DNA of 36,374 nt. Source: Psammoneis japonica (lineage: Eukaryota). The stretch is from assembly GCA_008632985.1 (NCBI GenBank), contig QPGO01000378.1:1-36374 (forward strand), in the 5' to 3' direction. The translations under genes were made by a program, and so were the position numbers. Below the pieces are notes generated by a model. It was not told the origin of the DNA. It did no database searches and saw only the letters and a list, made by a program, of their open reading frames with translations. Shown one piece after another: positions 3,048-31,031 of the stretch (the first letter of the stretch is position 1; the number at the start of each line of letters is the position of its first letter).

Positions 3048-3584
3048 ATGAAACTTTTCCTACCTACCCTCTTGCTCCTTCCTACTCTTGACGCCGAAGC
3101 TTTCGGTCTGGGACGCAGTCTCTTTACACACCCCTTGACTGTTTACCAGCCGGGTACGCTTTTCCGTGATGTTTCCTTGGACAGGCATTTACCCAACACG
3201 TCGCCGCGGTATGAAATTACCGATACCAAGGACGAGTTTCAACTCCGCGTGGACGTTCCCGGTGTCAAATCTTCCGAGATCCAAGTGAATGTCGAGAACG
3301 ACATGCTCTCTTTGAGAGGCGAACGTAAGGAAGAGAAGGAAAACTACAAGTTCTCCTCGAGCTTTTTCCAGAGTTTCAGTCTTGATCCATCCGTGGAGCA
3401 AGAAAAAATCACGGCCAAACTTGTAGACGGAGTTCTCACCGTGACGGCACCCAAGGACCCCAAGAAGGTTGACGAAATGATTCAGCGCATCCCCGTCACG
3501 GAGGAAGTGGAGGAAATTCCCGTCAATGTTGCCAAGCCCAAGGAGGACGTCAAGGATGAATCCAAAGAAACTGTCAAGGCTTAA
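3048..3584 (+). CDS. HSP20: Small heat-shock protein (HSP20), probably plastid-targeted
   Basis: ATG 3048 gives MKLFLPTLLLLPTLDAEA-FG (signal + Phe). Motifs VDVPGVKSSEIQVNVENDMLSLRGER and ITAKLVDGVLTVTAPK; clear paralog of 366-967. Confidence 0.92.
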   Translation: MKLFLPTLLLLPTLDAEAFGLGRSLFTHPLTVYQPGTLFRDVSLDRHLPNTSPRYEITDTKDEFQLRVDVPGVKSSEIQVNVENDMLSLRGERKEEKENYKFSSSFFQSFSLDPSVEQEKITAKLVDGVLTVTAPKDPKKVDEMIQRIPVTEEVEEIPVNVAKPKEDVKDESKETVKA

Positions 3585-4054
3585 TAGCCGTTCCCGAGAT
3601 TTTGCTGACATTTTCGGCTTTAGATTTGCCCGGGTATTCTGATAGCAGAACAATGAGCCAATACACGCATCCATGATGTTTCAGTGGCAGTGCCCGGTGA
3701 CAATTATACATGAATACGAATTGCATAGAGATATTTTCAACGAAGACAACGAAAACAACACGGACGATAAGGATGCATTTAGATTCCAATAAACTAAAAA
3801 CGACGCTTGAAAGCCTACCTAGATAGTGCGTTCTTACTACTCTATAGATAAATTCTGGTTTCGAGTTACAAGAGACGATACCGCTAGTAATAGAGTCGAT
3901 ATCGAATTGAGAAACTAGAGCAAGTTGGATTTGATTGGTCGAAAAGGAACAAGCAGTACCGGTAGAATGAAATTGGAAGACAATTGATCGAAATACGTAA
4001 GGTATGGTGGTCTAGAGTTGTAAGAAAGGGGAGAGAGACACGAAAGAGAGAGAC

Positions 4055-4350
4055 AAGCGAGAAAAACCAAAACGGCCAAACTCTGGACGGAGTAAGTCAC
4101 CGTGGCGACTCCCAAGGATCCCAAGAAGGCCGAAGAAATGATTCAGCGCACACCAATAGACAGCAGTAGAGTATAGTCCTGTCAATCCCAAACGTCAAGA
4201 AGGAATCTGAAAAAGGCTTTCCCGTATGACCAAAGTGACTATTGCGCTGTTGGTAGAGCGATCGGGCACCGCAGTAGATCCAACTTACAATTTTTATAGA
4301 GCATTCATTTTCCACTAAACTAAAAACGACGCCTAAAAGCTTATAGCTAG
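4055..4350 (+). pseudogene. Decayed, internally deleted duplicate of the 3' end and downstream flank of the second HSP20
   Basis: Collinear matches: acggccaaac 4072-4081 vs 3411-3420; cccaagga(t/c)cccaagaagg 4111-4129 vs 3450-3468; gaaatgattcagcgca 4135-4150 vs 3474-3489; taaactaaaaacgacgc 4316-4332 vs 3790-3806. Confidence 0.8.
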
Positions 4351-7254: not shown

Positions 7255-8201
7255 ATGTCCATAATGTACAACACCTACAGAAAAACGGCACTGTTTGTTT
7301 TATTGCTGTTTGCCTCCTTTCCCTCTGCAGCACTTGCATCATCGGTCGCTGGGCAGAAACGTTGGTGGGCGTGGTGGGTCGCGACTTTGTCATGCTGGGA
7401 GCCGACTCGTCCATGAGTCAAAGCATTGCACTTCAATCCTCCAATCTCGATAAAATTGCCGTTTGGTGGATCCCATGGTGGAAGAAACAAATAATAATCG
7501 ACGACAACAAACAATTCTAGCTGCGGCAGCCGGGGATGCCGCAGACGCGGACCGATTGGTGGGACTGTTAAAGGCCTATGCCGCCATTGCGGAATACGAA
7601 GCGGGTATTGGATGTGATGTTGAAGTTATTCAGTTGGGGACGGAAAAGAATAGTCATGTTGCTGCTTCACCAGCTGGCCTGACCATTTCACAAGTGGCGC
7701 ACATGGCTCGTGGTCAAATTGCAACGGCGCTACGATCTCCAACACCCTACAAGGTTTGTTTGCTTGTGGCTGGCATGTCGACGACAAAAAGCGTCAAGGA
7801 TGATGAATGGAAAACAGAAAAGGAGGAAGCAGACCATCAGTTTCTCTCACAACAGTTGCAACTCCAAGTTCAAAAAGCGTTAGAGACAGAAACCGACGGA
7901 ATCAAACGATGGAGAAACAAGGACATCTAGTGCTTTGGAGCCTCGCTTGTATTGGTTGGACGAATATGGATCTGTGCAAAAGCTCAAGTACGGTGCACAT
8001 GGCTACGGATCAAACTTTTGTCTTTCTATATTAGATCGGAGATTCAAACCCAATCTTAGTCGACAGGAAGCGGAGGAATTGATTCGAGATTGCTTTGATC
8101 AGTTGCGGACTCGCTATGTCATTAATTCGCCACAACCGCCGTGTATCAAGTGTGTGGATGCAAGTGGATTCCAATTATTGACTAGTGATGGTGTAGCATG
8201 A
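7255..8201 (+). CDS. PSMB2: 20S proteasome beta type-2-like subunit with N-terminal signal peptide (putative periplastidal/symbiont-specific copy); apparent frameshifts at ~7352, ~7463, ~7890
   Basis: Reconstructed MSIMYNTYRKTALFVLLLFASFPSAALA-SSVAGAETLVGVVGRDFVMLGADSS...DKI, then AAGDAAD, LRSPTPYKVCLLVAG, PRLYWLDEYGS, AHGYGSNFCLSILDR, CFDQLRTRYVIN. These are the beta-2/PRE1 motifs. Confidence 0.85.
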
Positions 8202-8479
8202 CGGCGGTTTTAAAAAGTTAAATGCAGTCGAATTGAGAACGTCCTACAAGCTACACGGCTACCTTGAATGGCTGATAAATCTATTATTGGCGGGATGTGC
8301 CCGTCGGCTTAGAAAAGCTGTTTATGTCACGCGTTTCTTTCAACGGACTTTTTACTTTTGGAGAAGCTTCCGTACCAGTACCAGTGTCTCTACTTGCAGC
8401 GTTTCAACACATGCGTTGCGTTTCGTATTTTGCCCGACGGAGTACTACACAACGCGTGTCGACCGCTTTATCCGGCTTT

Positions 8480-8700
8480 ACGAAGTAGAAGTCGTGTCAT
8501 TCGTTGCCATGGAGGAGTTGTCAAGATCAAAGATAGTCGTTGTTCCAGAGTTGAACTGTCGCTTCAGGTGTCCCCCCCCCTCGCATTGTTTCCATCGTCC
8601 CGGGAGCGATGCCCATCACGCAATGAGTCAACTCCGACAAAAGACCGCTCAAAACCTCATAGTGTCTGGGTTCCACGGAAAAGAGGCGGTGCATCGAATG
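8480..8700 (-). pseudogene. Decayed, internally deleted duplicate of the 3' part of the neighbouring 8894-9980 gene
   Basis: Exact 23-mer 8583-8605 = 9030-9052 and 17-mer 8668-8684 = 9212-9228, collinear, with the spacing shortened from 182 to 85 bp. gttgccatgga (~8503) vs gtcgccgtgga (~8928). Confidence 0.75.
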
Positions 8701-8893
8701 CCTGAAACGTTATGAGAAGACTACTTTCCCGTCAAGACTAACAGTCACTCTTCGCTTAAGCCCATCTCAATAGGTTAGAAAGGATGCCGCATGTGATATA
8801 TCTTGTAACTAGCTAAAACTTAGTGATATACTACACATTCGACAAACCAAAATTTGTACTTCAAAAGCGGAACCAGCCAAAGCCACGGGTTCT

Positions 8894-9980
8894 TCATTCC
8901 TCAGAGTCGGCAGTTGAGTTCGCAGTCGTCGCCGTGGATGAGCTTCCAGCCGCCGTGGATGCACTGGCATTACCAGCCGCAATGACAGCACCATCGCTGG
9001 CCCCATCGCCTCTACTAGTGCTTCCACCAGCATTGTTTCCATCGTCCCGGGACCGGTCCGTTGTCAAATCCGAAGGAATCTTGGTGCTATCGCCAGCGTA
9101 ACCAATGCTGACGGGGATCAAAGAACGAAGACGGTCGTTGATAAGAGACATCATGTCTCCCCATTGGGCCTGAGGAAGTTGAATGAAGCGCTCCAAAACG
9201 GCATCATCGGCGGGTTCCACGGAAAAGAAACGGTACAGGTGACGAAGGGAATCAATGGTCACTTCTTCCCTATCACAGTGAAGGAGACAGCCTAGGAATG
9301 CATTGCGCTTTGAAGCGTCTTGACCAAAGCTTTCCACCAAGCCCTCGAGAAGCGCTTCGCTTTCTTCTCCTGGTAAAATCGCAACGGCAAAAAACAAAGA
9401 AACCACGGTTGAGCACGGAAGCAACGTGGACTGTGGCTGGCGCATTGTTTTTTGAGCACAGCAGCACTTACTCTCACTCTGGCGATTGTCCTGCATGATG
9501 ATGGATGAAATAACAAGCAAGTTATCAGTTGATAGAGGCAGTGACGGCTATCGACAACGATTCGTAGAGATTTTGAAAATGACAACAGATTTGAAAGCGC
9601 GGGTCAAACGGCTGATCGGTACAATCCATCGTTCATTCTACATACGTGACATCTGCGTAAGCTGTACTACACCTTGGTTTCGACTGCGGAAAGAACAATG
9701 AAAACGATAGAGCGTCTCCAATCATCATGCGACGTGCAATTTCAACACCCACACACGTCCTTCTACGTTGCAAGTGTGCTTGTTGTAACGAGCGCGTGTA
9801 AAGATCCTTGGCTGTATCGCCGCCGACACTTACTCCAACATTCGAGACTTTCACCGTGGAAGCGTCCGTTCGACACGAAAAGGAATCGTCATCGTTTTCA
9901 TGCCTCACTCTCCTCCATGACCTCTGGAATTGAAATCCACTTGCAACCGGGAGGCTACTCTGCTGAACAGCTGAACTCAT
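8894..9980 (-). CDS. Hypothetical protein; 3' part well supported (8894-~9370), 5' exon structure uncertain
   Basis: ORF 8894-9520 has a globular segment and an S/A/G-rich tail. Candidate intron gtaagt..ttttaccag at ~9371-9471. Upstream ATG ORF 9633-9980 is on the same strand. No family recognised. Confidence 0.5.
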
Positions 9981-10157
9981 ATTGGTAGTGGAGGATGGTC
10001 AACTCGTGACGGAATTATAAAGCATCAACACCCGCAAAACATCGTGTCGTTGTTGCTACCGTGTTGTTGCGTTGGTTTCAGGTCTTTCCGTGATCGCTGT
10101 TCTTCGCGCGAAAAATGTGCGCGATAATTGGTCGTCTGGGTCAGGGTCAGCCCCCCC

Positions 10158-10342
10158 TCTACGGTACCTCTCTACCATACTCTCTACTCTCTAGAGCTAG
10201 AGAGTAGGAACTAGAGTAGCTAGAGAGTAGAAGTAGCTACTCTCTACTCTAGCTAGAGCTAGGAGCTAGTAGCTACCCGGTAGGGCTACCGGTACACTCT
10301 CTAGTAGCTAGCTCTCTCTACTACAAGTACGAGTACAGTATG
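10158..10342. repeat. Low-complexity CTAG/CTAC/GTAG/AGAG-rich tract
   Basis: ctctactctctagagctagagagtaggaactagagtagctagagagtagaagtagctactctctactctagctagagctagg...; extremely TpA-rich with self-complementary words. Confidence 0.85.
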
Positions 10343-10583
10343 GTATTGGCAGAAGTATCCATGCTTCCATGTGCAAGGGAGACTGCCAATCGTTAAGGAT
10401 GACAAGAAAGAGAACGCAAGAGCAGCACTCCAATAGAGTTTGGGTGATTGTTGTTGTAAAGACGACAAGACCACATCAAACGTTTTTTGCGCGGGATAAT
10501 TGACGCCACCCGCCGATGTCGATGACTTCAGCAACGTATCGTTTTGCTCCTTTTGTCATGTAAAGTATTTCAATTGAGTCGAC

Positions 10584-10834
10584 GCACATGGTGTTGGATC
10601 AAACTTTTATCTTTCCACACTGGATCGGAGATTCAAGCCCAGATTGCTTTTATGAGTTGCAGACTCGCCATGTCATTTTATTCTCCACAAACCGCCATTC
10701 ATCAAATGTGTGTGGATGCAAGTTGATTCTGCTTGTTTACCAGTGATGATGCAGCATGATAACGGGTTCAAACGAGTTTAGAATCAGTCGCATTGAGAAT
10801 GTCCGACAAGCTGCAACGTTACCTCGAGAATGGC
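10584..10834 (+). pseudogene. Diverged partial duplicate of the proteasome beta gene 3' end and 3' flank (parent 7995-8272)
   Basis: Alignable over ~250 bp (ggatcaaacttt, gatcggagattcaa, gactcgc, tgtgtggatgcaagt, cagtcg.attgagaa) with a ~35 bp deletion and many TA->CA/TG substitutions. Confidence 0.9.
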
Positions 10835-11052
10835 AGCATTCTGCTCACGTACTGTAGTAGTCACCGCAATTACAGGATGGCGTGCGCTTATTGGACTGCT
10901 CTCTACCGGGAGTTTTGTCCGGTGAGACTGCCTATCATTGTGACCTCTTCAGATGGTGTGGCAATTTGGAAGTCGAAGCTCTACCGTACATAGCAGGAAA
11001 TATGGAATTCGAATATGCAGAGCTATTCCAGTTCTCAACAACTAAGTTTATT

Positions 11053-11717
11053 TCATTCTATTTGAGCTTGACTGTTGAATGCAAAGACAGCTTCTTCAAC
11101 ACCCTGACTAAATCGTTTGGATTCAATCCTTCCCGCTGCATGGATATCGTTGAACGGATTCAACATGTACTCCACGTAGAGACCGTGAATGGTTTCCAAA
11201 AGCTCCTTGATTTCAGAATCCTTTGCCATTTGCAATTGTGTCTGATCCGGCAAGACATCATCGTGAACTACCACCAGGAACTTTATTCTTGTGTTGTCAT
11301 GTATCCTGAAACAAAAATATTGCAAAAATAGCATGGATAAGTCTTTACAATACAAAAAGCTCAAACAGCAGTGCTCTCGCTCATGCGCGCAATGACCAAC
11401 ATACCATAGACTCTCATTTCGTCCACCGGACACAAGAGTCCCACCCACATGGCGTCTGTTCCGGTAACGCCCGTGGTTCTCCACCCCACTCCCGGCGGTG
11501 GACCTGCTAATTCATCGAATCGATCCAACGCGGAATGCAATACGAATTGTTGCTGTAGCGAACATGATGAGGAGTCGCTTGTTACTTCGCGGTTGCTGTT
11601 GCTTTCATGCTTATTGAAACCAAACAAATCTTCGTCCTCATTACTTGCTTGAGTGAACTCCTTGAGAAAGAGAGGCTTATTGTCCTTGCCGACAAGGGCG
11701 ATACTTTGAATCGACAT
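11053..11717 (-). CDS. TRAPPC2L: TRAPP complex subunit 2-like (sedlin family); intron 11306-11404; apparent -1 frameshift at ~11291
   Basis: MSIQSIALVGKDNKPLFLK...QFVLHSALD...MWVGLLCPVDEMRVYG|YMTTTRIKFLVV...IKELLETIHGLYVEYMLNPF...I.SKRF, the sedlin/TRAPPC2L signature. Intron GTATGT..TTTCAG. Confidence 0.9.
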
Positions 11718-11965
11718 CTGATGCGTCGTGAGTGCGAGCGAGAACCACCGCCATGGTGACTCCTCACTCCTCACTGCGTAGCACGAGCTCGATGAGAAAC
11801 TCGAGCTCCACAAAGAACTCGTGATTTTTGAAATATATTCATGAATATATACATAATACGGTTCGCAATGATTTTGGCGGGCAGCAATCACGCGCACAAC
11901 ACCCACACGCGCTGTTGCATCAACAACACAAGCAGTCTGTGTGGAGCTTCCATCAAAATTACATC

Positions 11966-13871
11966 ATGTCATTATCCAATCATCAGCATGATGATGATGA
12001 TTCGGTTCTCATGCCGCCGCCGCCTCCGAAACGACCGAGATCGAATTGTATTGTCGACGATAACGACGTTCGGCCGACCGCAATTACTCCACCCAATCGA
12101 AGCAGCAGCAATGACGATGATTCTTCCAGGAGGTTGATCCATCACGATAACAACGTTTTGTTTGATGATGGTTGTGCGGCATCGGGTTCGTTTGAGTTTC
12201 AGCACGACGACGACGACTTTTGTGATACTAACGACTCCTCGCATGAAGCAATGACGGAAAATGCTTTTGTCGGTGGTACGGAAAGCGTGTGTTGCTACAA
12301 TAACTTTGAAACCCGTCACGAGTTGCAACCAAACGAACGAGAGGAGGAACAAGAGTCTCGTTGTTGTTGTTGTTTTACGCCGACTAACGAAACTCCGTGG
12401 AACCCGTCATTACGACTCGCTTTCGAGATGTTGTCGGTCATGGAGCCGCAAAGCTACGAATCGATGAATTGCTCTTGCCGCTGGCGTTGCCACAGTCCGT
12501 GACGGAAACGGTTCTGACAGGTATATGACTTTTTGATTTTCGTTTTGGAATGCGTATTTTTGTTTGCTGCTGTGGTTTTTCTCATTTTGTTCTTTCCACG
12601 CCGCGTTGTTCTCTATTTCCGTTTTTATAGGAGTACGCGCGTTGCCAGCTTCTATTTTATTGTACGGTCCACCGGGATGTGGTAAAACACAGCTTGCTCG
12701 GGCTATTGCAGGTGAAGCGCAAGCCGCCTTTGTACAAGTGGGTCCGAGTGACGTTCTTTCCAAGTTTGTTGGAGAGTCGGAAGCATCGATTCGGCTCTTG
12801 TTCAAAACCGGTACGCGTATTGTCTCTTTTTGACTTTTTCTATATTTTTGAAGCTAGCATACTCACACTTGTCGTCTCGCTATTGATCTCTCGAGTAGCG
12901 TACGAACGCGCTCGCAACGTGGAGAGCCAATGCGCCATTTTGTTTTTTGACGAGATTGATGCTCTTGGGCAGTCGAGAGGTACCAGTAGTGAACCCACGG
13001 AAGCTCAATCAAGCTCCGATTCAAGTCCTTGTTCCCGTCAAGTACTAGCAGAGATGCTTATTCAGTTTACCAACCTCTCCAATGGCATGCTGGAAGAATT
13101 TGCTCTAGAAGAACTTCGTTCCAAAAATGCTGTTGCTCGCGGTGAATCAAACCATGACTCTGATGACTCGTGGACGGATCAAACCCCCGAGTGCTCGTCG
13201 CTACAGCAGCCTTCAACAAGACCGGTTCGACTCATTGTGGTTGCCGCAACGAACCGCCCGGACGATTGTGACGCTGCCTTGCTCCGTCGGTTTGGCATTC
13301 GAGTCTATGTGGGACTGCCATCGAAACGGGATCGTAAAAAGATTGTCGTGCGACTCCTCAAAGACATTGATCATGACATTTCGGCACCGCAGCTGGAACA
13401 GATTGCCGCTGAAACGCAAGATTGGTCGGGATCGGACTTGGAAGCTCTCACGCGGGAAGCTGCAAGTACGTATAATTTCATTTTGAATGATACACGTCGT
13501 TCTCTTTACTGCGGTTTTACTCACGCGTTTCTTGTCTATTTGTAGTGACCCCGGTACGAGAATGCCTTCGCTCTGCAGCACTGCTCAAAGCCAAGGTTCA
13601 CAAAAAAGAGGAACAACAGCGAGGTGGAGACGAATCGGCCCAAGAGCAGCAACCCGCGGCGGATGCACACGAACAAGCTAGCTCGCTGTTATTGCGGGGT
13701 TTTGAGAATTTGCGTCCCGTGAATTTACAAGATTTTGAACGGGCGGCCGAGTTTTTGCTTGGGACCCAAGATGCCCAGTCGCAGAGTAGCGGTGGTACGT
13801 TGGGATGCAAGAGATACAGCCAAGTTCACTACGATAGCTCTAGCAGCTCGGATGACGAAGGAGATGATTAG
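11966..13871 (+). CDS. AAA+ ATPase of the meiotic clade (spastin/katanin/fidgetin/Vps4-like); introns 12521-12630, 12811-12898, 13466-13545; apparent -1 frameshift at ~12390
   Basis: [21 protein letters not shown], Walker [13 protein letters not shown], pore loop LSKFVGESE, Walker B ILFFDEID, sensor VVAATNRP, Arg finger ALLRRF, WSGSDL..L.REAAM. All three introns are GT-AG and phase-compatible. Confidence 0.9.
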
Positions 13872-15600
13872 CGAGTATTGGGGCGCAAGTTCGCTACGAT
13901 GGTTCAAGCGGCGCTCAGATGACGACTGAAATGACTATGAGTAGCTAATGTAGCTCCTATGGTTTCGCCATTTGAATACAGGGGACGACCTGAACAAGTT
14001 TCAAATCCCGGTTCTATGAAGGCGGGTCGTTTTTGACCTGCAGCACGTGAACCAGGTGGCCTGGCGTCTAATGCCTGTCTAACAAAATATCGTACATATA
14101 GAAAGTGGAACCGTTTTTTTATAGCCCCCCCTACTGTAACTATTGTTTGAGAGCATTCTGACAGGTTATGTCGCTCTCCAAATCAAAATGGACACACAAC
14201 AGGTGGTCTTTCATTCAGCATGTGACCCATCAGATATGGAGTGCCTCGAGCCAAATTTGAAACAACTTGGTCCTCACCATGCGTCAACCGACATGCATGG
14301 GGAACGCCTTTGGAGTGTCAGGTCCAAAAAACCTCCACCTGGTGATGCATTTTGGGTTTTCCCAGCAAATGATCCACACTCAAATTTGAAATTCCAGATG
14401 CTTGGATTGATGGACTGGCTCAGTGCAAGTTCTACAAAAGATTCTTTGGACCGGGTGGGTCTAAAGACATCCCCAGGAAGTTGTGGCATGACCCATGACA
14501 GAGGAAGCCCATCCCTTGCTTTGCTTCATGTCTCTTCCTTCCTTTCAGCAGCATTCAAGCAAACAGGCTGCCAGTGCAGCAGCCACTGAGGACCAGAATG
14601 AAGTCAACCTGCCCACGTGGCTGCAAATGACTCAAATGGGGTGATGAGGAGTGAGTCACCTCCTTCCAAAAGACAAGATGCAGAAAAAAATGAGGCATCA
14701 TCACCTGCCACAGAGGAACCACAAGGGACATCTGGAAGCACTCCAGAGAAAAGCAGAAGAACAAGAGGCAGAAGAAAATGTGGAAGCTCCAAAAGATTGC
14801 ACCAAAAAAGTCATAACTCAAGAGACCACATTTCACAAGGAGGAGTTTGCATGCCCTTCTTGTGACACTGAAGGAGGAACACATTTTCTCCTTCAAGGAG
14901 GGTTGACCACAGGTCATGCACACACATGAAAGTTTGGTTGTGCAGCTGAATGTTCCTCATTGATGCCAGAAAAAATTGTGAAAAACTCAGCTGGGTGTCG
15001 TTTCACAAATCCTTTTGCCACATCTGATTGGCAAAGCTGCCAGCAGCTGAACAGCTCTGGCTGCCAATGCAAAATTCTGTTGGCTGTGAGGACAACAAAG
15101 AAGCTGGTGTGATTGGCAAAAGAAGATCATGCAGCATCCTTCTTGTGCAGAGCAGCTCTCTGTGTTCCAAGAAGACAGTTTGTTGCAGGGAGACCTGGTG
15201 CATTGGCACAGTGCTTTTAAACTGGTGCATGTGCTGCCTTGGAAGCCATTGTTTTGGTCTTCGTCTTGGTGGAATCTCTCACCATTTAGAGATGGCTCCA
15301 CCAACATGTCCAAGGCCCCAAGAAGCAAAGCCGTGAGGTTCACGTTGCACTTGGCAAAGCACAAGAGGAAGCTGGTGTGTGTTCTTCTTAGCAGATGAGA
15401 CAGAGATGATGAAGGCAAACGGCCGTGCTCTTTTTTCAACAAAGATGCATCAGATTGCATTGACTGTTGCTGGTTCCATGACACAAATCCCAGGAAAGTT
15501 TTTGCACTTCACACTCCACAAATGTGGCAACACATTTTGGTCATGGTTGCACATGCATCAGATGAAAGCTGACCTTTGTTGCAAGAACAAGCAATGCAAA

Positions 15601-15914
15601 TGAGGTGCGAGTGTGAATCTGATTGCCCAGAAAATGAGTGCAAACTTCATGAAAATTGAACATTCTGCACAACCAAAAAATTGGCATTGCAAAAGATTGG
15701 GAAAATGGAAAGCAGTGCATGCAGCAGACTTGAGAGTTGCACCGCCATCATGACTGCAATTGCCATTCCAAACACTCACAGCTTTTGACCACCATGAGGC
15801 TCTGACTGGACACGGCTGATGTGATGAGCTGTGCACAGTGAGGTGCGAGTGCAAGTCTGATTGCCCAGAAAATGTGCAAACATGATAAACATTGAACATT
15901 CTGCACAACTAAAA
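15601..15914 (+). repeat. ~75 bp imperfect direct repeat (15601-15678 and 15839-15914)
   Basis: tgaggtgcgagtg..tctgattgcccagaaaatg..gtgcaaac..attgaacattctgcacaac occurs twice. Confidence 0.85.
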
Positions 15915-16009
15915 GATCGCTCTAGTTGGCTCTGAAACAGATTTCATTTTAAGACAACCCCAGTCTGTGGAAAGAATGACTCGCCAGGTCCATCGTCTTG
16001 CTGACCACC

Positions 16010-16700
16010 TCACTTTTCTTTGTTGGTTGTCAATTTCTGAGCAAGATCTTCAACTGCGGGAGTCACCCAGTCTTCTTGATTCTTGACATCATGAACTCTC
16101 TGCATGTCGAGTGCAACAGCCTTGATTTGACTGTTGACATGACACACGCCCACATTCCGCCAAGCTGCATCACCACGACGAAAGCCATCACCTGCGAAGT
16201 CCTTCACCAATGTCTGCCTTGCCGCATCCAAAGTTGACAGAGTCCTTTCCGGAGACTGAAACCAGGGCATCAACAAGGCTGTTTGGCCCTTGTCTTGTAC
16301 AACCCGAATGGTTTTGGGTGCTGGTGGAAGATGTGAGTGCACAGCTTTCCACATTTCCTCTTCATGCTTTGCCTTCAGATCAGACTCTTGGAAAAAAAAC
16401 TTCAAAACTCCAACAGCTCCCTTTGTGCCACCCAACACAAGGAAAACTCCACCATCAGCACCACGCCCAAGATCTTCCCACAGAAAAAAATTCTTGACAG
16501 TGCCTGAAATGCACAAATCAAAGTTCAAACTGCTTTGTGGTGGAGCCTTTTTCCAAGCAGAGCTCTTTTCATTGGCCAAGCACAGCACCATCATTGCACC
16601 TTCTTGCTTGGCAAGCATCATCTTTTTCACAACAGATGCAAACACAACTGCACCTGCCACGCCAGTTTGAAGTTGCTCAAGGCCTGGGTCTCACAGCAGT
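16010..16700 (-). pseudogene. Degenerate protein-kinase-like gene (Crinkler-type / DUF5898-like family, tentative)
   Basis: Gly-loop DLGRGADGGVFLV, VGVLKFF, HEEEMW, ALLMPWF, catalytic-loop-like GDAAWRNVG, VALDM. Homologous to 31608-32231. Family name is from recall only. Confidence 0.6.
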
Positions 16701-18082
16701 GTGTCGTGCATCATGGCTTGGGGGCACTGGAGCATGCTTCGGGCAACTTGGCACAATCACTCCATCCAAAAATGCTTTGTCAGGTCCCCTTCTCTGAATT
16801 CAAGCACAAGTCCTGTCATTCCCAGAAGCCCTTTCTCTTCTCTTTTGATTGCTTGTGGGTGCTGCATTGGGCACACTTCTTTTTTCAATGCAAGGTGGCT
16901 TGTTGCACTCCACCAGTTTCCCAAGGTGTGCTTGAGCAGGGTGAGCTCTTTTTCCACTTTCTCAGTGCTCTCAATGCATTTGATGGTGGAGTTGCAGAAG
17001 ATGCTCACATTGTTGTTGTTGTTTTTGGAAAGAACAGTTTTCATTGTGTGAAATCTGCAACTTGCTCTGCAATGCCATGTTGACAACACATGTGTGCAGG
17101 TGCTTCGTGCGCATGGATTGGGACAAGACTAAAAGAAAGGTTGCAACATCATGCCACTGTTTCTAAAAGTGAGATCTAAACCTGAGGAACTGCTCGGTGC
17201 CCAATCGCCAATGACAAAGCATGCCAAACTAACTTGAATTGATCACAGGGTAAATTCTTCAGTCTCCTCAAGTCGATGAATTGGACAATGTCAGAAATCT
17301 CTTTTTGCATTTGCCAACAGAACATCTGGTCAGAAATGCAAAATTCTTGACTGTGATGATGAAGCTGGTGTTGTCATGTTGGTTTTTTGAGCAGCAGATG
17401 TTCTCAGCACACCTGCAGCTGCAGCCGCCCCAGAGATCGTGCATCACTTTGACATGGAACAGCTCTCTGTGCTCCAAAATGACACAGTTTGTTTTTGAGG
17501 AAACCTGGCATCCTGGCAGCTGTGCACCATTCAAACCATCACAGAAGCCGCGGCCTCCTTTGCCAGGAGCCCGCACAACTGATGACACAGAAAATCAACA
17601 GGAGTGCAGGTGCTGCTTGCCTGTTGTTGCTTTGGCAGACATGGATGAGATGCACTGTGTCTGTTGGAGAACAAACTGTTTGATGATGAAGTGTGGGAAT
17701 TGTCTGGTGAGGCATTTTCTCTGTGTTTCTGGCGGCGCCAAAAGAGCTTCTGGAGCATGCCAGATTGGTGGCCCAAATGTGCTCTTGTGTGACACCAAAT
17801 TCATGGATGTTTGAAATGCAGGTTGGCTGGTCATGACATGCGGACATGCAAGTGCAAAGGTTGTGCAATGATGGCCTGAACAAAGAACATGGGAAAAGAT
17901 GTTGTGCATTTTGTTAAAAACTCTGCAGGTTTCACATGAACAAACATTTCATCAGACACATCTTTTCACTGAATTGCCGGATTTCACTTGAACTTGTGTG
18001 TGGAAGTCATTGTCTGATTTTGGTGACATCACAGAGGGCTTTTTGTCTCATTGCTCCTGAACTGATGTTCACAGGAAAGAAG

Positions 18083-18265
18083 ACTTGTGCAGACTTGTTG
18101 TGCTGGGTTGCACGAACTTGCACGAACTTGCATGGACTTTTTCACACTCAGGTGATTTGGTCACAAAAGCATGCACAAACTTGCATGAAAAACATGTGCC
18201 AACCTGCGCGAACTTGCTTGAGCTTGTGTGGGCTTGCGCAGATCACTTGCACAAACTTTTGCATG
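18083..18265 (+). repeat. Degenerate 10-bp tandem repeat (ttgcacgaac-like)
   Basis: ttgcacgaac ttgcacgaac ttgcatggac ... atgcacaaac ttgcatgaaa ... ctgcgcgaac ttgcttgagc ttgtgtgggc ttgcgcagat. Confidence 0.7.
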
Positions 18266-20303
18266 ACATTGCCCACCATGGCTGCTGTCATCATCACATT
18301 CGGTGACTGGCCACATTGAAGAAGGACATTTGATCAACAAATGAAATCCAGCAACTGATGAAGTGCAAAAACTTAGACATTTTCATTGTTTGAAGGAGAC
18401 GATGTCACTCGTTGTCACCCGGCAAGTGACAACAAGAACAACAAACAACAGTTGCCAGTTGACATGTGTGCTTTCATCATCTTGGTGTCAACTCCACATG
18501 CAATCATGAAAAATTGAGTGACAGCATTTGTTGCATTCTTGTTTTGAGCAAGAAAGCATTTGCCAAAATGATGCACATGTTTGAAAGTTCGTGCTCCTAA
18601 TTTCACACACACAAGCAGCCAAAAGCCAAGAGTGTGGCTTCAGCATTGCCACTTCTGATAGAGCTGGTCACAATGTGTTGTTTCTGACATTGACAAGGAA
18701 GCTGGTTTCTTTGTGGCCCATGTTCAATTGAAGCCTGTGCAGGCCCTGGGGATCTCCTCAAAGAAGTTTCTTTTTCAGACAGCGCAGAGACACATGACCA
18801 CCAAAGGTGGGGGGCACTTGCTGTTTTTGCAGTCATGAACAAAAACGTCTGCTTGCACATGTTTTTTGCTTTGTTGATGGTGAAGATGGGCATGATTGGG
18901 GAGCCTCACTCTGTGCCTTGGTCACCCCATTTCCAGAGCTTGGCGTTTGACGCAACATGGCAGAATCTTTTGAAAAATCATGCACCTTCGAGGGACGGGC
19001 AGGCTCTCTGTTTTTTGGAGCAAGTCGGGAGCAGGAATGGCCCATCTCACTTGGAAGCACACATTTTGCTCTCCAGGGGAGGGGGGGCTTGCTGCAATCA
19101 TGCTTGTCATCAGGTGAAAGATGCCAAGACAGACCCATGCTTCTGCTGAAGTGGAAGAAAGCCCCTCTTCTTCAATGTCAGAAATCACAAAAAAAGACTG
19201 AGCTGGGCTCTGTTTCACAACTTCTCTTGCATCTGATTGACAAAGCCACCAACAGCTTGCCTGGTCACAAGCAAAACATTCTTGACTCTGTGTGGGAGTT
19301 GGCAGCATTGCCAGGTTTGTCTGTGGTTTTGGGCATGTTCTCAGCAATGTTCTTGTGGCTGGCTGCAACCCTGGAGCCAATTCAGTGCCTTGCCATGGAG
19401 CAGCTCCATGTGTTCCAAGAGTGCAGCTTGTTTTCACAGAAACATGACATCCCATGCATCATTGCTTCAAGTCAGCATGGTTTGCCACTGGCCGCCATCA
19501 CACCAAAATGGTGAGGAAACCAGGGGACGAGGCACCAGCAGCTCACGCAAAGAAACATCCAACAGCGTTGGACCAGGCACTTCATGACAGAGTGAGTGTC
19601 AACGGGAATGTGGGCACCACCACTTGCCCACAGTTGCTTTGACTGGTGTGAATGAGACATGCTGTGTCTGATGAAACATGCAGGTGGGATGTTGTTTTCT
19701 GTCTGCCCTCTCACAAAGAAGTCAGAAGCGCAACCACCAAGTGCAGGAGCTTTGGCACCGCCATTCCCAATGGAGTTGGGCAACATGCTGTTTCCAATTT
19801 GAAAAGGAAATTGGTTTCTTTGTCACCTGTGTGATCAAAGCCTGTGCACATCTCTGCCCCCAAAGTGTTCTCAAGGTTTTGCATCGCCACACATGCCAGC
19901 ACCACATGACCATGAGAGAGGAGGAGGACAGCGTGCCCCCAGAGACACCAAAGGTGGAATCCACTCACTGTTTGTGATCATCCACATTGTTTCTGTTCCC
20001 AAACATTCTTCACTTTCTCAATGCCGAAGATGGGCATGACTGGGGAGTTGGACTGCACGCCCTTGTTCTCGAAGTACGACAGTGCAGCTTGGCAGCTTGG
20101 CACTTGAAAAACCACGCACCTCCGCCCGATGATGTTTCGGCGATTGAGTCGTCGGGAACGGCCCATCACCTGGACAATGTTGTGACATACTGTAGTAGCC
20201 GTTCAGAGAGAAGCCACGTAGAAATAGTACTGCAACGAAAGTAGAGCGTCCGTCCGTTGCGTCGTTCACGCAAAGATCCCCAAGATCGCGAAAAACCACG
20301 CAC

Positions 20304-21057
20304 GAGTGGCGTACTTTCCAAAAGTGCGGTGCGCAGTACTCGTCTACATACGGACAAATAGCACTAGACTCTACGCACCGAACACAACAAGATTTCACTC
20401 ATTACGACAACAGCAGGGAAGTCTATCATGTCGGGTATATCGACGTTATTGCGCTTCTTGCGTATAAAAAATACATCAATCCACTAATATTACGCATGCG
20501 AATTGGATGGGATACAGGATCTTGCAAATCTGGTGAAAAAATCGTCCCCCCGTGCTTCACCGTGTTAAAAACCCCGTGCTAATCCTCCATAAAATGAATG
20601 AAAATCCAACTTTTCGTCAAAATCTGTTGTCGCGTGCTCACTTCAGTGCTTCATCAATGCGATCGACCGAGAAAACACAAAATACACCCCAAAAAAAGTG
20701 AAAAACAACAGTCCCACCGCGGCCAAAACCTCTACGTGATTTCAGTACCAAGTTGTACGTGCCAAAAACCCTTCGTCACCAATGGCTCAACCAGCTCCCA
20801 AAACAACTCGATCATTGTCATTTGACATTGATATCTCATTTCTTATCATATCAGTTGTTGTCTCGGTGCATCATAACCTCCCAGTCCGCTGTCGTTGTTG
20901 TGTGCGTCCATTGCCGATGTCGCGGCGTCGTTGCCGTGATGTTTGTGTGTGAAGTGAATTCAAATAAACATCTCTACGAATTTTGTAGTACATTTTTACG
21001 TACGTATATTTTGTGTAGATTAGGTATGCGCACCGAATTTTTGAAAGTACGCCACTC
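20304..21057. repeat. Imperfect ~45 bp inverted repeat pair (20304-20348 and 21014-21057)
   Basis: The reverse complement of 20304-20348 (tgtagacgagtactgcgcaccgcacttttggaaagtacgccactc) aligns to tgtagattaggtatgcgcaccgaatttttgaaagtacgccactc. Confidence 0.75.
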
Positions 21058-21182
21058 CATGGCGAAGACACAACACAGATGATGTCAAGGAATGCATGCG
21101 TCGATAAGTTGCACCGCGTCATTGCTATTGTAAATTGCCAAACGTTAACTGCCTGTAGAGACGGCCTGTGGTAAGAAGTAAA

Positions 21183-24100
21183 ATGAGCGGGTTGAACGCG
21201 TCGCAAGCAGACTTTGCCAAGCTACGGCAACATGTCCTTCAGTTTCTCAAAGAGCTTCGACGAGGCGACTTGTACGTATATGGGTTTGAAGCAGACGACT
21301 TTGATCATCTACTTGATTCGGACGGGAATGCTCCGCCTCTACAAGAAAAGACACATGTGTTTAATCGACTCTTGTTGGCGGTGGCACGAGAGCTTTCCGC
21401 TGGAAGCACGAGAAAGCGAAAACTAATCCTTGAGCAACTTTATTCGAACCTTGACGACTGGGTGGAAGCAATTAAAAACTTTGACGACAAGGCAGTCAAG
21501 AGCGAAACAGATGACGAATATCGAGGTACGTCAACTGCAAGTAGACAAGAACTTAAAACGGCAGAGGAAATTGATGCTGACACAAAGCTGGAAAAGAAAA
21601 TCGAAAAAGAGTCGACGAAATCTCGAGAAGAAAGCCTTCCCGAGACGCAGGATGAGATTGTGGATGTTTCTAAGGAAAAATCTGATGAAGTGAAGGTGAA
21701 ATCTATACCCAGAAAGAAAAGCAAAAAGAGAAAGTCAGAAGAAAAATCTGGAGAAGAAAGCCTTCCTGAGAAGCACAAAGAGCCTTTGGGTGTGAACGCG
21801 GAAGACGATGACCTAGAAAAGGTGAGATCTAAACCCAAGAAGAAAACCAAGAAGAGAAAACCAACTTCAGCTAATAATATCGAGGAGGAGGTGAGAACCC
21901 AATCGAAAAAGAAGAGCAAGAAGAGAAAATCAGCTGAAACCTTTGGAACTGAAACCGAAGACAATATCGAGGAGGTGAGATCGAAACCGAAAAAGAAGAG
22001 CAATAAGAAGAGAAAGTCAGCTGAACCATCTGGAGCTGAAAGCATTCCTGAAAAGCATGAAACGTCCTTGGATATGCAACTGGAAGACAGTGACGAAGCG
22101 AACACGATATCTAAACCTAAAAAGAAAATCAAGAAGAAAAAATCAGCGGAGAAGACTGGAAGAGAAAGCCTAGGTGAGAACCGTGACGAGAAGCCTTTCG
22201 ATTTGAACGTGGAAGAAAGCGACGAAGAGGAGTCTGCAGCAATACCCAGAAAGAAAAATGGCAAACAAAGATCACGTTCGGTCGAGAAAAAAGGGAACAA
22301 TCACGACGGAACAGAACAGCAAGCTGAACCACCCGAGCAAGAGGACCTAGCAAATGTCAGTCCTTCTGTCATTGCCAAAAGAGAAATCATGAAAAAAGAA
22401 TTCGAACAAGAAAAGGAGAGGATCATGTCTGGAATACCGGATGATGTGCGTTCCCAGTTTGGCCAAGTCGGATTTGCCAAGTGGTCCGGAGACTATCTTC
22501 CAGTCCTGTTTCTGAGCCCATACCATGTACCCCCTGGGGAGGTGCGCGAAAATTGGATGGCAATGTACAAGAACGTGAGTTACATACCAGCGCAACAACT
22601 CCGTCTTTCTTTTCTGAAAACTCTAAATCCTTGTCCTATTTTTATGATTTTTGCTAAACCCCAGACCAGGAACCGTAGAAGCAGCATGACGAGACTTGTT
22701 TATTGGTACGGAGAGCAAAATATGGAGGTAGCATTCTCGTTTTTGATTAAGAAGCATTGCATATCGTACGAGGAGGGGGTTCAAAAGGGCAAGCACAAGC
22801 TCAAGCGGGCTATCCAGAAAAAGGTGGACGCCGGCAAAAAGTTATCGGAAAAGGAGCAAGGCATGGTGAGAGGGTTGAAAGAAATCAATGCTGACGCCAT
22901 GAAAGACCCCAAGGATAGAAAGCTACCCTTTCCAAATTTTTTCGAGGAACACGAGGTTTTCGGACTTGAAGAAGACGAGGAAGTGGATGAAGAGCTTATC
23001 AGTAGTGATGAGGAACCGTCGCCAGTGAAGAAGAACGGATCGAAAAAAGTAGACCAAGACCTTGTTAGCAGTGACGATGAAGCACCGCCAAGAAAGAAGC
23101 TGCATAAAACATTTAAGAAAATCGACGAAGAGCTGATAAGCAGTGATGATGCATCGTCACCAAAGAAGAAGCCAGAGAAAGGATCAAGGAAAATCGACGA
23201 AGAGCTTGTGAGCAGTGATGACGAGCCGTCACCAAAGAAAGGATCGAAGAGAATCGACGAAGAGCTTGTAAGCAGTGATGACGAACCGTCACCAAAGAAA
23301 GGATCGAAGAAAGAGAACGAAGACCTTGTTAGCAGTAATGACGAAATGTCACCAAAGAAAGGACCGAAGAAAAAGAACGAAGAACTTATCAGTAGTGATG
23401 ACGAACCGTTGCCAAAGAAAGGATCGAAGAAAGAGAACGAAGATCTTATCAGCAGTGATGATGAACCGTTGCCAGAAAAACAAATGGAGAGAAAGGACGA
23501 AGAGCTTATAATTAGTGATGACGAGCCGTTGCTGGAAAAAGGATCAAAGAAAGGACCGAAAGAGCGAGATCGCGGAGACAATTCGCACGTTTCGGAAGGA
23601 CAAGACTTGGCGGAAAACGAAGTCTCATCGGGCGAGGAATACGAATATGCCGTCTCGAGCGAGGATAATGACGCTGATCAAAACTACGAACCGGAAACAA
23701 CCGCGAAAGCGAATAAGAAGAAACACGCGATTTACCGTCCAAAACTTCAAAGACGAAGCCAAAAAAGGCAAAGATTAACCGCAAGAGAAGCAAGGCAGCT
23801 ACTAAAGCCCGAGGAACAAAGGCAGATAGAATCAAGGCTGAATGGAGAAAAGAACAGCGCAAGTTCGAGGAGTGCGAAGATAAATTCCTTCCGTTGGAAG
23901 AGCGTTGGACATCGTCTCTCAAGACTGGAGACACCAGCGATCTTGCTGCGGTGATCAACGAGCTCTCTCATTTTGTCGATTCGCTGTCTCCCACATTCAT
24001 TGAGACTTACCAACTCGCTCGACTTATGAAGAAAACAAAACCAATTTTGAAGAATATGGAGACAGAGTACGGAGTGTATAAGAATGTATGGAACACAATG

Positions 24101-27450: not shown

Positions 27451-28677
27451 GATGAGTCAAACGACGAACCGTACGAGTTCTCAGTTCCTAGTCACCATAG
27501 CTATTGTAGTCGGTTTCCTTCGCAAAGTAACAGACTCATGAAGGATATAGCTTCAAAACTGGTTGAATGTGCTCACCCAGTTCATCAGCATTGACCAACA
27601 CAGCAATGTCTGCCCATGCATGGTGGTGTGGAAATGCCGCCTCTTAGACTCCACTTGTGGGGGTTGTGGGTGCACAGGCTCGTGGTGCCATGCATGGTGT
27701 GGCTCTCGGTTGCCAGTCCCTGAACTGGAGAGTGCAATTTGAAGCTTTCTCCATTGCCACAAAACAATGCTGACTGCACAAGTGCCCTTTTGTGGATGAG
27801 TCTAAATCATTGCCACTAAAAGCCATGTCAAATGGTGGCTGCACAAAGTCACACATGTGATGGGAAATCTCAAACCCATCTTCCACCTGATCTCCTTCAT
27901 CACATGAGAGAAATCACTTTGTTTTAATTCAACAACACATTTGTTGCAACATGCCCTTTGATGAGTGGATTTGCCATCAAACAAAGTTGTGATCTCATGT
28001 GTTGTTTGTGGGTGCACTTGAAGGTGTTCCTTTGTCTTGATCCATTTTTGCTTCAAACAAGAGAAGATCATTGACCAGCACATGTGAGAGTTGAATCTCT
28101 CACTCAGCTTTCAGTGCATTTCAATTCTCCCTTGAAGCATTCTGGAGCCCATGGAAAAGGTGTCCTCACCTGTCCCACTGGCAGCAACAATGTGTTTTCA
28201 TGTTGCAGTTGTTTTGACATGGTGCACATTCTTGTTTGAGCTCCTCCACACAACATCCCAACTCCCTGCACCCCACAGCCCACACCAGCAGCCCCACATG
28301 CCTGCCCAAAACTCTGAAAATTGATGGTCGATGTTGTTGCAGCTGCTTGCAGCGGACACAAGAACCAAGCCCAACTTGGACTTTGTGGACCCGGTGGAAC
28401 TCAAAGAAGACACCAGCAGGTGAAGCATCCTGCTTGAAATGTTCCTTCTCACAATGGAGGTTGTCCATGCCCTTGTTGAAGCACAAATGTTGGGCAATCT
28501 TGACCTGGGAGGTTGCAAGATCATGCCAAAGGGCATTTTCAGTGGCAGCCAAGGAAAGTGCCCTCCATGGAGCTGGGGCACAACTCAGCGCAGCAGTGGA
28601 TGGGTTTGTGAACCCAAACATGACAACCAATCACAGCCTTCACAGTGGCAAAGGCAATGTGGGCTGTGCCTTGATCC

Positions 28678-30500
28678 ATGGACACAACAGAGGCAGCAGC
28701 ACCTCTGCAAGACATGCTGGTGGCTGCAGTGAGCAATGCAGGCCCAGATGAGTCAGCACATGACACCATGACAAGTTTGTCAACATGTGCCAATGTGGGG
28801 TTGGCATTTGGTGCTGCAAGGGGCACTGCTGCCAGAGTGGTCACATGCGGCACAGCCTTGGATGCAACAGGCACAGCCATGCCTGCAGAAGACATGCTTG
28901 CATGTCCACAGCAGTCAATGCAGGTTCCAACAAGGAACCATGTGCCACCATGACAAGATTGTCAGTGGCACGGACTGATGAAGGAGTTGCGCTCTTTGTC
29001 AAATGGGGCACAAGCACTTGGTCAGTCACATGCTGCACATTTTTGGATGCATGAGATGTGAGAACATCTCCACAATGCCTGCTTGGTGTTGCACATGGCA
29101 GCACAGGACTTGACGGGTTGGTGCACAAGTCCATGACAAGGTCAGATGTGGGCAGCAATGGGGAGGGAAGATTTGTTGAAGAGCCTCAAGGTCAGCAAAC
29201 AACACTCTAAGGACCTTGACAAGCTCAGCGAGGTGCTCAAGGAGAACCTTGATCACCTGCAAGTCCATGAGTGTGGTTGCATTGACACCAAGTTTTGTGT
29301 TTTTGATTCTCACATCATTTCTTCTCAAATCATGCATTGTGCACACACAGAAGTTGGCAGTTAGCCATGGTGGCACAAGTGGAGAAAGAGAAGCCATCGA
29401 GGGTGTCTCTGCCTTTTTGAACAGTGATGATGAGCACCGCCAAGAGCTTGCATGTGAGCCCAAAAGCACAACCATGATTTGTGCACATTCTTTGCCAACA
29501 AAAAGGACAATGCCAAGGCACCTTGCATTCATGGCATTGCCCCGTGAACAAGAAAAAGAAGCAAGCTGAGATTGTGCTTCAAGGGATGGCAAATGTGTCA
29601 CTCAAGAATGCCTGGTGAGATTGGTCCAGCAACTTCAAAGCAGCATGGAAGGGCAAGAGTCTGATGAGGAGTCTCTAAAACAGGAAAAGGTTGAGCAGTG
29701 GGGGCACTCTTGCAGAGTCCAATTCATTCTTCTTGTGTGACAGAGACAGGAGTCAAATCCTGACACTGATGCAGAAAAGAATGATGATGTCATCAACAGC
29801 GCCTTTTTGTGCCAGGGCTTGATCCAAGTCCTTCTTGGCTCTTGAAAGAGCAAGATGAGGCCCATTGACAAGATTGTTCAGGAAGACATCAAGCCGCTTG
29901 TGCAACTGGGTTTCTGGCAAGTCTTGCATGAGTTGAAAAAAATCAAAGTCATTGTCTGCTTTCTAACCAAGATTGCAGATTGTGCATCAGTGGTCACTCA
30001 TTGGGTGGTGTGATTGCAACACTGTTTGGATTCTGCATGGCTGCAGATCCAGACCTTGCCAAAGAAGGGCCCATCATGGTTTGCACATTTGCAGTGCCTC
30101 GTGTCAGTGATGCTGCCTTTCATGAAGGTGCCTTTTTGTCCTGGACTGAGATTTCAAGCATGCAAGTGCAGGGGAGTTGCACCTCTCATGCTTGACTTTT
30201 TTCTCTTTTGCAGTCCCTCAACTGCCCTGGCCAGCCGGACTTCACAAACATGATGGCATGGAGGTGCGACTTTGAAAGGATGGACCTCCCGTTGTGGATT
30301 GTCCAGTCAAATGCTCTTGGCAACAATCTGGCTCAGGGGTCATGAAAAGCATTGCCTCAATGCCACAAGCCTTGATGTGTCATTCCTGCAAAGAAATGCT
30401 GAAACGATTCAAGAAGTCCAAGGACGCTTTTCTCAAATCGACACTGGAGCACAAATGCCGTTCCATGAGCGGAATTTTAACGTGTCGAGAAGACGGACCC
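28678..30500 (+). pseudogene. Class-3 lipase (Lipase_3, alpha/beta hydrolase) pseudogene
   Basis: CISGHSLGGVIATLFGFC...VCTFAVPRVSDAAF (GHSLGG nucleophile elbow; the family has YTFxxPRVG). At ~29525-29595, CIHGIA.VNKKKKQAEIVLQGM matches the family's YGI.VN...KR..VVFRG(S/T). Multiple stops and frameshifts; ends approximate. Confidence 0.8.
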
Positions 30501-30533
30501 AAAAGAATGCACTGTTGACACTAAAAACATCAA

Positions 30534-31031
30534 CCCTTCAACCACCAGGGGAGCAAATCTCCACGGGTGGAGATTTGCTCTGCTTGAGGATTTGTGGTGT
30601 GTCATGCACTTTTACAACAACACAATGTGCACAGCACAAAAATGTCATGCCACGTAGAATCTGCGTAAAGTGTGCCACGTGCATTTGCTTGTTGGGAGCA
30701 AATCTCCACCGGTGGAGATTTGCTCAAAGGGTGTGGTGTTAAAGCTCTGTTTGAGACAGCAATTCATGATGACCTCCATTGTCATAGGTTGAGATTTAGT
30801 TCCTCTCTATCCACAGATGCAGCTTGCAAAAAACCCGGTGTTAAAAGTCGACATTGAACTTTCTAAATTAAAAAAAGGGTTCCCCCAGGTTCTTGGCGAA
30901 TGCACATTCCAAAACAAAATCGCGCGAACAAAATGTCACTCACATCTGAAATTACTTGTTTTGCTGTGTTTGTGATGCAAGGGAGCAAATCTCCACCCAT
31001 GGAGATTTGCTCAAGTCCGGTGGTTGAAGGG
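30534..31031. mobile_element. Non-autonomous piggyBac-like MITE (~500 bp) with TCAA flanks and three internal 30-bp palindromes
   Basis: TIRs CCCTTCAACCACC (30534-30546) and GGTGGTTGAAGGG (31019-31031). TCAA flanks both ends (30530-30533, 31032-31035). GAGCAAATCTCCAC-NN-RTGGAGATTTGCTC occurs at 30551-30580, 30696-30725 and 30983-31012. Confidence 0.8.

Follow-up and report, generated by a model that had tools for sequence, protein, structure and literature searches.

Hypermutation at TpA steps has been described in Bigelowiella natans, where its targets are integrated DNA of nucleocytoplasmic large DNA viruses (NCLDV), as well as of virophages (Mettrop et al., bioRxiv 10.64898/2026.01.13.699255). 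The available part of that preprint reports a rate raised about 1000-fold, active in some lines only, and proposes an adenine deaminase without identifying the enzyme. Repeat-induced point mutation (RIP) of ascomycetes is triggered by duplication and changes C to T, mostly CpA to TpA, which leaves A+T-rich blocks (PMC2621366, PMC7296669, as far as the accessible text of these sources goes). In diatoms, islands of transposable elements (TEs) are described as CG-methylated, with H3K9/H3K27 methylation, in an otherwise unmethylated genome (Hoguin et al., PMC9998398, in the part available). Among adenine deaminases, an engineered TadA variant is stated to prefer YAC (PMC13109818) and amphioxus ADAT2 has been reported to deaminate DNA (PMC10354150), both according to the accessible parts of those papers. 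Here we analyse a stretch of 36,374 nucleotides from the diatom Psammoneis japonica (QPGO01000378.1, contig C378 of a 91-Mb, 597-contig assembly; hereafter the window), and in particular a block at 14145-20050 (island 1) from which TA and CG steps have largely disappeared. We consider it highly probable that such islands are made by a TpA mutator, accompanied by slower CpG decay, that works in bounded domains and is aimed by position; this confidence covers the process and its positional targeting, not the enzyme.

The host is a stramenopile, whereas B. natans is a rhizarian; the nearest clusters of a protein from the flank are mostly Bacillariophyta, and the silicon-transporter family is matched 24 times in the genome (best E 2e-208). 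As far as the available preprint text allows comparison, in both cases T/A changes to C/G at TpA steps of either strand, confinement is regional, single-copy sequence is targeted, and windows that are poor in TpA and rich in CpA/TpG occur in clusters. They differ in their targets, which are viral in B. natans and are here transposons and host-type gene copies, with no viral genes seen in the window. TpA erasure is near saturation here (0.05, against 0.45 in the B. natans NCLDV region) and takes in about half of the genome sampled here, whereas B. natans has 124 clusters. The TpA change is paired here with CpG decay, whereas the main text of the preprint mentions neither CpG nor diatoms. The quantities measured also differ: 3' pyrimidine preference, off-target A>G and gradients within elements here, mutation rate per generation in the accessible text on B. 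natans.

The islands resemble the products of RIP, a process that depends on RID/DNMT4 and on the sexual cycle, in that dinucleotide-specific transitions kill repeats and in that sharply bounded blocks of odd composition lie between genes. However, TpA changes to CpA here, the blocks are neutral in G+C, and targeting is by position. RIP-type C>T in CA was seen at 21 of 2321 sites, and TA is lost, not gained. The process is RIP-like in effect, yet it is not RIP, because the base change runs the other way and is not set off by duplication. The methylated TE islands of diatoms (DNMT5), in so far as the available account describes them, are likewise isolated, and the CpG decay seen here fits deamination of methylcytosine; methylation, however, accounts for the loss of CG alone and offers no route from TA to TG or CA, which is the faster change. 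TadA/ADAT2-type deaminases make pure A>G changes, and the YAC preference reported in the accessible text is close to the TAC/TAT preference found here, but no natural enzyme of this class has been shown to be guided to chromatin domains, and none of the present results links the ADAT2-like gene of the diatom to the signature.

Composition and edges of the islands

Between 14145 and 20050 (5906 bases) we counted 22 TA and 75 CG steps. The observed/expected ratios are 0.05 for TA, 0.23 for CG and 1.77 for CA/TG, compared to 0.58, 1.10 and 1.12 in the left flank, and G+C is nearly equal (0.47 in the island, 0.48 in the left flank). Relative to its flanks, island 1 has lost 80.6 TA+CG steps per kb and gained 82.8 CA+TG steps per kb; the gain offsets the loss, and because the effects of the two processes on G+C cancel out, a scan for G+C does not reveal the islands. 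The codon-type triplets reflect the same erasure (TAA 19, TAG 14, TAT 5 and TAC 6, against TGA 310). The domain, its edges and its left-hand neighbour are as follows.

14169 to 20187, no strand: TA-erased domain of island 1 (change points and hidden Markov model (HMM) segments)
14114 to 20025, no strand: CG-poor domain of island 1 (change points and HMM segments)
14114 to 14193, no strand: sharp left edge, about 250-300 bases past the AAA-ATPase stop codon (change points)
20026 to 20187, no strand: stepped right edge, TA lost and CG retained (1 TA, 11 CG)
12631 to 13871, forward strand: AAA-ATPase gene, intact, 3' part, of normal composition (Pfam AAA, AAA_lid_3)

The initial annotation placed an abrupt collapse of TA and CG near 14140, and the left edge is indeed sharp: the joint TA+CG change point lies at 14173 (range 14142-14193; likelihood-ratio statistic 240), with CG alone changing at 14113 and TA alone at 14168. 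On the right, a gradual recovery had been described between about 20050 and 20200. The composition does recover there, but not as a smooth slope, for CG changes at 20025 (19978-20115), the two jointly at 20058 and TA at 20188 (20063-20188). The interval 20026-20187, picked post hoc, holds 1 TA where 6.2 are expected at the flank rate (p=0.015) and 11 CG where the island rate predicts 2.0 (p=1e-5); the right edge thus forms a step of about 160 bases in which TA is gone and CG is kept. The island had also been said to lie between intact genes of normal composition. This holds on the left for the AAA-ATPase gene, whose stop codon is the TAG at 13869-13871 and over which a spliced contig spans 11417-14104 with three GT..AG introns removed; on the right, the first element is a transposon of 755 bp and the next long frame begins at 21183.

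An abrupt compositional edge would also arise if a foreign contig had been mis-joined, or if the DNA had been inserted from a donor natively lacking TA and CG, and both had been put forward as ways in which the island could be explained away. However, the allelic contig C358 aligns with 8597-20304 at 98.8%, crossing both edges, and short-read contigs cover 10221-16690 at a depth of 59.9 and 18416-20304 at 56.1, depths like those of the flanks, although the run is possibly from the sample that gave the window's own assembly. A native donor composition is contradicted by intact relatives, of normal composition and found inside and outside this genome, of the DUF5898 gene that lies eroded in the island, and by polarised transposon copies. 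Foreign origin, in either form, is already refuted, and we give it a negligible probability. In the short-read run X2, which yields spliced contigs, most of island 1 is uncovered; this is no evidence of silence.

By extrapolation, island 1 is one among thousands and is not special as a place. TA-erased islands of at least 1 kb occupy 45% (11 islands) and 62% (23 islands) of two 200-kb samples, with a G+C of 0.49 inside and 0.47 outside, and across the 400 kb sampled 1-kb windows are bimodal. This bimodality, together with transposon copies whose state follows their position, upholds the earlier proposal of a process restricted to bounded domains as opposed to a global bias. TA is below 0.2 in 189 of 397 such windows, 15 of which keep CG at 0.8 or above, and among the 181 windows in which TA is normal, just 2 have CG below 0.5; loss of TA is what islands have in common, while their loss of CG varies. 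The window holds a second example.

27550 to 36374, no strand: island 2, of the same kind, with an assembly gap (TA 0.09, CG 0.39; composition and HMM)

Three features of island 2 may be recorded here. A segment of 982 bases at 31872-32853 (TA 0.09, CG 0.55) is missing from C358; a palindromic element of 30-34 bases is present in three copies at 30549-31014; and a tyrosine-free frame of 218 residues at 31608-32264 on the reverse strand has the appearance of a second kinase-like remnant, with no Pfam match. Elsewhere in the genome, several copies of C5 DNA-methyltransferase genes (L094-L096, L100, L103; C301, C297, C28) are TA-erased, some with CG at 0.7-0.8, and are perhaps TE-borne or recently silenced.

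Spectrum, order and placement of change in one transposon family

The value of island 1 lies in the miniature inverted-repeat transposable element (MITE) that adjoins it, as this is the source of the direction, order, context and targeting rule.

20304 to 21058, forward strand: young non-autonomous DNA transposon (MITE), 755 bp (terminal inverted repeats, then AT target duplication)

The left end of this copy is cut by a small deletion and 1 of its 42 TA steps is changed. It is present on this haplotype only, being missing from C358, and the right edge of the island is identical on the haplotype without it; the young MITE was therefore rejected as the cause of that edge. The family, which we take to be ISL2EU-like, was analysed through the best 30 of its 63 genome matches (L026-L055), polarised by the state that most of the 8 youngest copies share. 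Roughly half of the 30 copies lie where an island ends, with an eroded flank on one side and a normal one on the other, perhaps through insertion preference or selection, and none of the 8 youngest has both flanks eroded.

The spectrum comes from 17 eroded copies and leaves out L048 and L051 (partial, nearly unchanged) and L052, L054 and L055 (divergent subfamily). At TA sites, A>G is found at 435 of 1355 positions (0.32), with transversions at 3 only, while other adenines are changed at 63 of 5610 (CA 25/1871, GA 24/1494, AA 14/2245). G>A occurs at 90 of 1568 CpG sites (0.057) and at 10 of 3774 other guanines. The relative rate at TA is about 30-fold that at other adenines and more than 100-fold that of G>A outside CpG, and is a lower bound because TA steps saturate. 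Context matters on the 3' side: TAC and TAT are changed at 0.37, TAA and TAG at 0.20, and off-target A>G has the same bias (54/2822 before a pyrimidine, 9/2788 otherwise). The TA sites that survive in islands are mostly CTAA, TTAG and TTAA, because TAA and TAG are attacked less than TAC and TAT. In 19 copies the outcomes were TG at 231 and CA at 196 steps, both kinds occurring in every eroded copy, and double hits numbered 4 where 64.6 were expected; a single change destroys the TA target on both strands. A>G with a preference for 5' U would fit ADAR-type editing of transposon transcripts that were then copied back to DNA (bioRxiv 10.64898/2026.01.13.699255, in the part accessible), but the affected sequences include a DNA transposon and gene remnants, and every eroded copy is changed on its two strands to a similar extent; this route is already refuted and we regard its likelihood as vanishingly small.

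The copies also give the order of events. In L034-L036 and L041, 15-33 of the 42 TA steps are lost and no CG is lost, and no copy in the close MITE subfamily shows the reverse. TA loss precedes CpG decay, and CG loss accumulates only in older copies. The initial annotation had treated the loss of TA and CG as a single process; the MITE copies show two, of very different speeds. One could instead suppose that mismatches of the TA/CA and TA/TG kinds are invariably settled in favour of G:C, by biased repair or by gene conversion that takes place between copies or alleles, given that A>G exceeds G>A outside CpG, non-TA sites included. Such conversion needs donors that already carry the change, however, and two copies at one insertion site have opposite resolutions at 8 of 42 TA steps; moreover, copies with 15-36 TA changes carry merely 1-3 other substitutions. 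We judge conversion to be very improbable.

What is targeted depends on position and not on homology among repeats: a given MITE sequence can be free of change, half-eroded or saturated, according to where it lies relative to an island. Eight young copies that are 98-100% identical have 0-1 changes each: five are flanked by normal sequence left and right, and three, the window's own included, lie just outside an island. Among full-length copies with at least 10 changes (12 copies, one of an insertion pair and a tandem pair being left out), erosion is heavier on the side that faces the eroded flank (Spearman 0.92, p=2e-5). Across 8 half-eroded copies, TA is changed at 126 of 172 sites in the island-facing half and at 34 of 163 in the other, and CG at 13 of 195 and 4 of 188, respectively (p=0.045). 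Counted per 100 bases from the island-facing end of these 8 copies, the fraction of TA changed is 0.71, 0.69, 0.76, 0.76, 0.48, 0.22, 0.19 and 0.05. Homology is not the trigger, because the two halves of a copy are equally old and equally repeated, and either may be the eroded one.

These observations bear directly on a RIP-like recognition of homology that would mutate repeat copies and leak into adjoining DNA. The islands do contain repeats and retrotransposon pieces, diatom DNMT4 enzymes are related to fungal RID (PMC9998398, in the available text), and the genome has 27 C5-methyltransferase matches at E<=0.001. Yet the eight nearly identical young copies have all but escaped change, and others are altered in one half only, whichever adjoins the eroded flank; the direction, T>C, is opposite to that of RIP; and a paralogue of at least 80% identity was detected for just 695 of the 6019 bases of island 1 (2046 of 6019 at any identity), as scored on the best 40 candidates of each whole-genome search, so that some paralogues may be missed. 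The approximately two thirds of the island without a detected paralogue are no richer in TA than the remainder (3.3 TA per kb, against 4.4). We consider homology recognition improbable.

The two haplotypes differ at 22 of 71 TA sites in the island and at 2 of 436 in the flanks; for CG, the figures are 60 of 248 and 4 of 645. This concentration of allelic differences in the island implies that both processes acted after the haplotypes split and that they are recent or ongoing.

Proposed mechanism and the case against it

The data show that a fast A:T to G:C transition acts at the DNA level on TpA (TA to TG or CA), favours TAC and TAT, leaks weakly to other adenines and ceases once a TA step is altered on either strand, and that CpG decays more slowly to TpG/CpA at the same places. 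New DNA landing inside a domain erodes from its island-facing side over a few hundred bases, while the same sequence outside is spared. The domain may be CG-methylated heterochromatin bounded by neighbouring active genes, a chromatin nature suggested by the CpG decay and by the diatom literature. The TpA mutator would most likely be a deaminase, recruited by that chromatin, that converts adenine to hypoxanthine in DNA, and its effect would be the permanent inactivation of transposons and stray gene copies. We put the chance that the enzyme is a DNA adenine deaminase at about even; this class is favoured because the changes are pure transitions with a preference for 5' T and 3' pyrimidine and with leakage to other adenines. 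The deaminase family has nine matches in the genome, none expanded, and the candidates are a housekeeping-type ADAT2-like frame (L143) and a TadA-like frame with a hydrophobic N-terminus (L140). In another frame (L142:313-1785, minus strand), a zinc-dependent deaminase is joined to a 2OG-Fe(II) oxygenase; it probably belongs to nucleotide metabolism and is a possible candidate.

The deaminase step alone, not the process, has a competitor, in which the lesion or error within the same domains would be on thymine or in synthesis: 5-hydroxymethyl- or 5-formyluracil might be read as C, or an error-prone polymerase might act in repair gaps of methylated DNA. TA>TG and TA>CA are one event seen from opposite strands, compatible with either chemistry, and changes at CG and TA co-localise in the MITE copies, as would be expected if repair of damaged methylcytosine recruited a mutagenic polymerase. 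However, changes at TA are nearly all transitions (435 A>G to 3 transversions), and AA is the coldest adenine context (14/2245), whereas polymerase eta mutates TA and AA alike; TA loss also runs far ahead of CG loss. A search of the genome for Tet/JBP, which had no positive control, gave no match. A thymine or polymerase origin is possible, though we think it less likely than deamination.

Several points weigh against the deaminase-based proposal or narrow its base. The sequence cannot separate a lesion on A from one on the partner T, and no special enzyme was found, there being no expansion and no chromatin-reader domain in the deaminase frames scanned. All the polarised data come from one MITE family, in which L035 and L037 have a common insertion site and 5 identical changes. 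Adjacent changes are concordant in strand in 207 of 390 pairs (null 200.5, p=0.25); a processive single-strand burst, which we considered, is unsupported, as there are no one-strand runs of changes. A survey of the edges of 36 islands (at least 1.5 kb long, CG observed/expected at most 0.45, 1.2 kb from the next island, no N) kept 34 edges, at which the offset between TA and CG edges was positive in 17 and negative in 17 (p=0.48), with medians of +27 for 5' and -10 for 3' edges. The sharp left and graded right edge described in the initial annotation is thus a local feature and not a general rule, and the edges equally fail to support a rule of graded 5' and sharp 3' edges or of TA edges lying outside CG edges. 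All 34 edges are within 1 kb of a long intact frame; this count has no control and is not used as evidence.

Island contents, neighbouring sequence and significance

Island 1 is best explained as a stretch of diatom chromosome that consists of pseudogene and transposon debris and has been silenced. Its contents, and the frame beyond the MITE, are as follows.

16024 to 16726, reverse strand: DUF5898 gene remnant, eroded, C-terminal part only (Pfam PF19250, E 3e-11)
16649 to 17055, no strand: dispersed repeat pieces, eroded, family unassigned (matches on many contigs)
17110 to 17290, no strand: piece of a Ty1/copia-type long terminal repeat (LTR) with no internal part adjoining (paired direct copies)
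17748 to 18387, no strand: low-copy dispersed repeat (10-bp tandem run at 18096-18230)
18849 to 20165, reverse strand: degenerate reading-frame remnants (self tblastx: weakly similar to 14920-15184 and 17469-17672)
21183 to 23954, forward strand: long Lys/Glu-rich open frame of normal composition (ATG at 21183)

The DUF5898 remnant is 63-67% identical to the three best intact homologues among the matches listed. Measured against an intact foreign homologue, it has lost all 20 TA steps, 14 of them having become TG or CA, whereas 19 of 39 AT and 21 of 39 GC steps of that homologue are retained; both conserved tyrosines have become His or Cys. The family has 14 matches in this genome, which include intact copies of normal composition as well as eroded ones; beyond it, the 5 metagenome loci found are all of normal composition (three of them resemble a single sequence). 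The DUF5898 relatives thus revealed no second genome with erosion, and a search with an eroded frame from island 2 was empty. The LTR of 17110-17290 forms direct pairs on six contigs, the two copies lying 5.7-10 kb apart, with RVT_2 between one pair (E 3e-7, slightly below the curated cut-off), and the members of such pairs differ mostly at TA/TG/CA-type steps. The remnants at 18849-20165 have no Pfam match and no match among 1.84 billion representatives. No relatives of 14169-16020 and 18388-20187 were found, a Pfam scan of 38 frames giving one chance-level match only; the same 38 island frames and the DUF5898 frame gave no viral family, much of the island being unassigned. The frame at 21183-23954 likewise has no Pfam match, and no homologue of it was found.

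Other observations concern the flanks. The gene to the right of island 1 contains 60-base tandem coding repeats at 22978-23591 with normal TA and CG, a repeat spared outside the domain, and a cluster of Hsp20-family genes at 269-4150 (Pfam for the first gene) is of normal composition, these being duplicated genes that are uneroded in gene-rich DNA. The end of a proteasome-subunit gene (7884-8214) is duplicated 2.56 kb downstream at 10584-10772 with 78-83% identity, and TA peaks locally at 10000-10500, where the read contigs have short palindromic joints. Between 8597 and 9800 the window and C358 have 42 differences, far above other flanks. We considered early erosion of the C358 copy and do not use it, since the gene is multi-copy, 15 of the 42 differences are shared with paralogues on C123 and many are transversions; gene conversion or a mixture of paralogues is possible.

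To the extent that the sources were accessible, a TpA-specific mutator is found in print solely for two viral inserts of one unrelated alga, B. natans, and was first described in 2026; no report of TpA erasure in diatoms was found in the literature searched, which was thin on subscription journals and bioRxiv supplements. New here are the direction, the order (TA before CG), the TAC/TAT context, the leakage to other adenines and the positional targeting rule. The pathway becomes testable through reporters and knock-outs, as diatoms have genetic tools, and if the proposal is true, a natural deaminase acting on adenines of chromosomal DNA would represent new biochemistry with a use in base editing. 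Loss of TAA, TAG, TAT and TAC leads to long false frames free of tyrosine, which may inflate diatom gene catalogues and distort the dating of transposons. We suggest, tentatively and at somewhat less than even odds, that diatoms run a natural heterochromatin-guided DNA adenine deaminase with a motif of TA followed by C or T, which would have rewritten about half of the genome; it would be a G+C-neutral defence mutator, aimed by chromatin position and not by repeat pairing, and possibly an old pathway of the stramenopile-alveolate-Rhizaria (SAR) group shared with Rhizaria.

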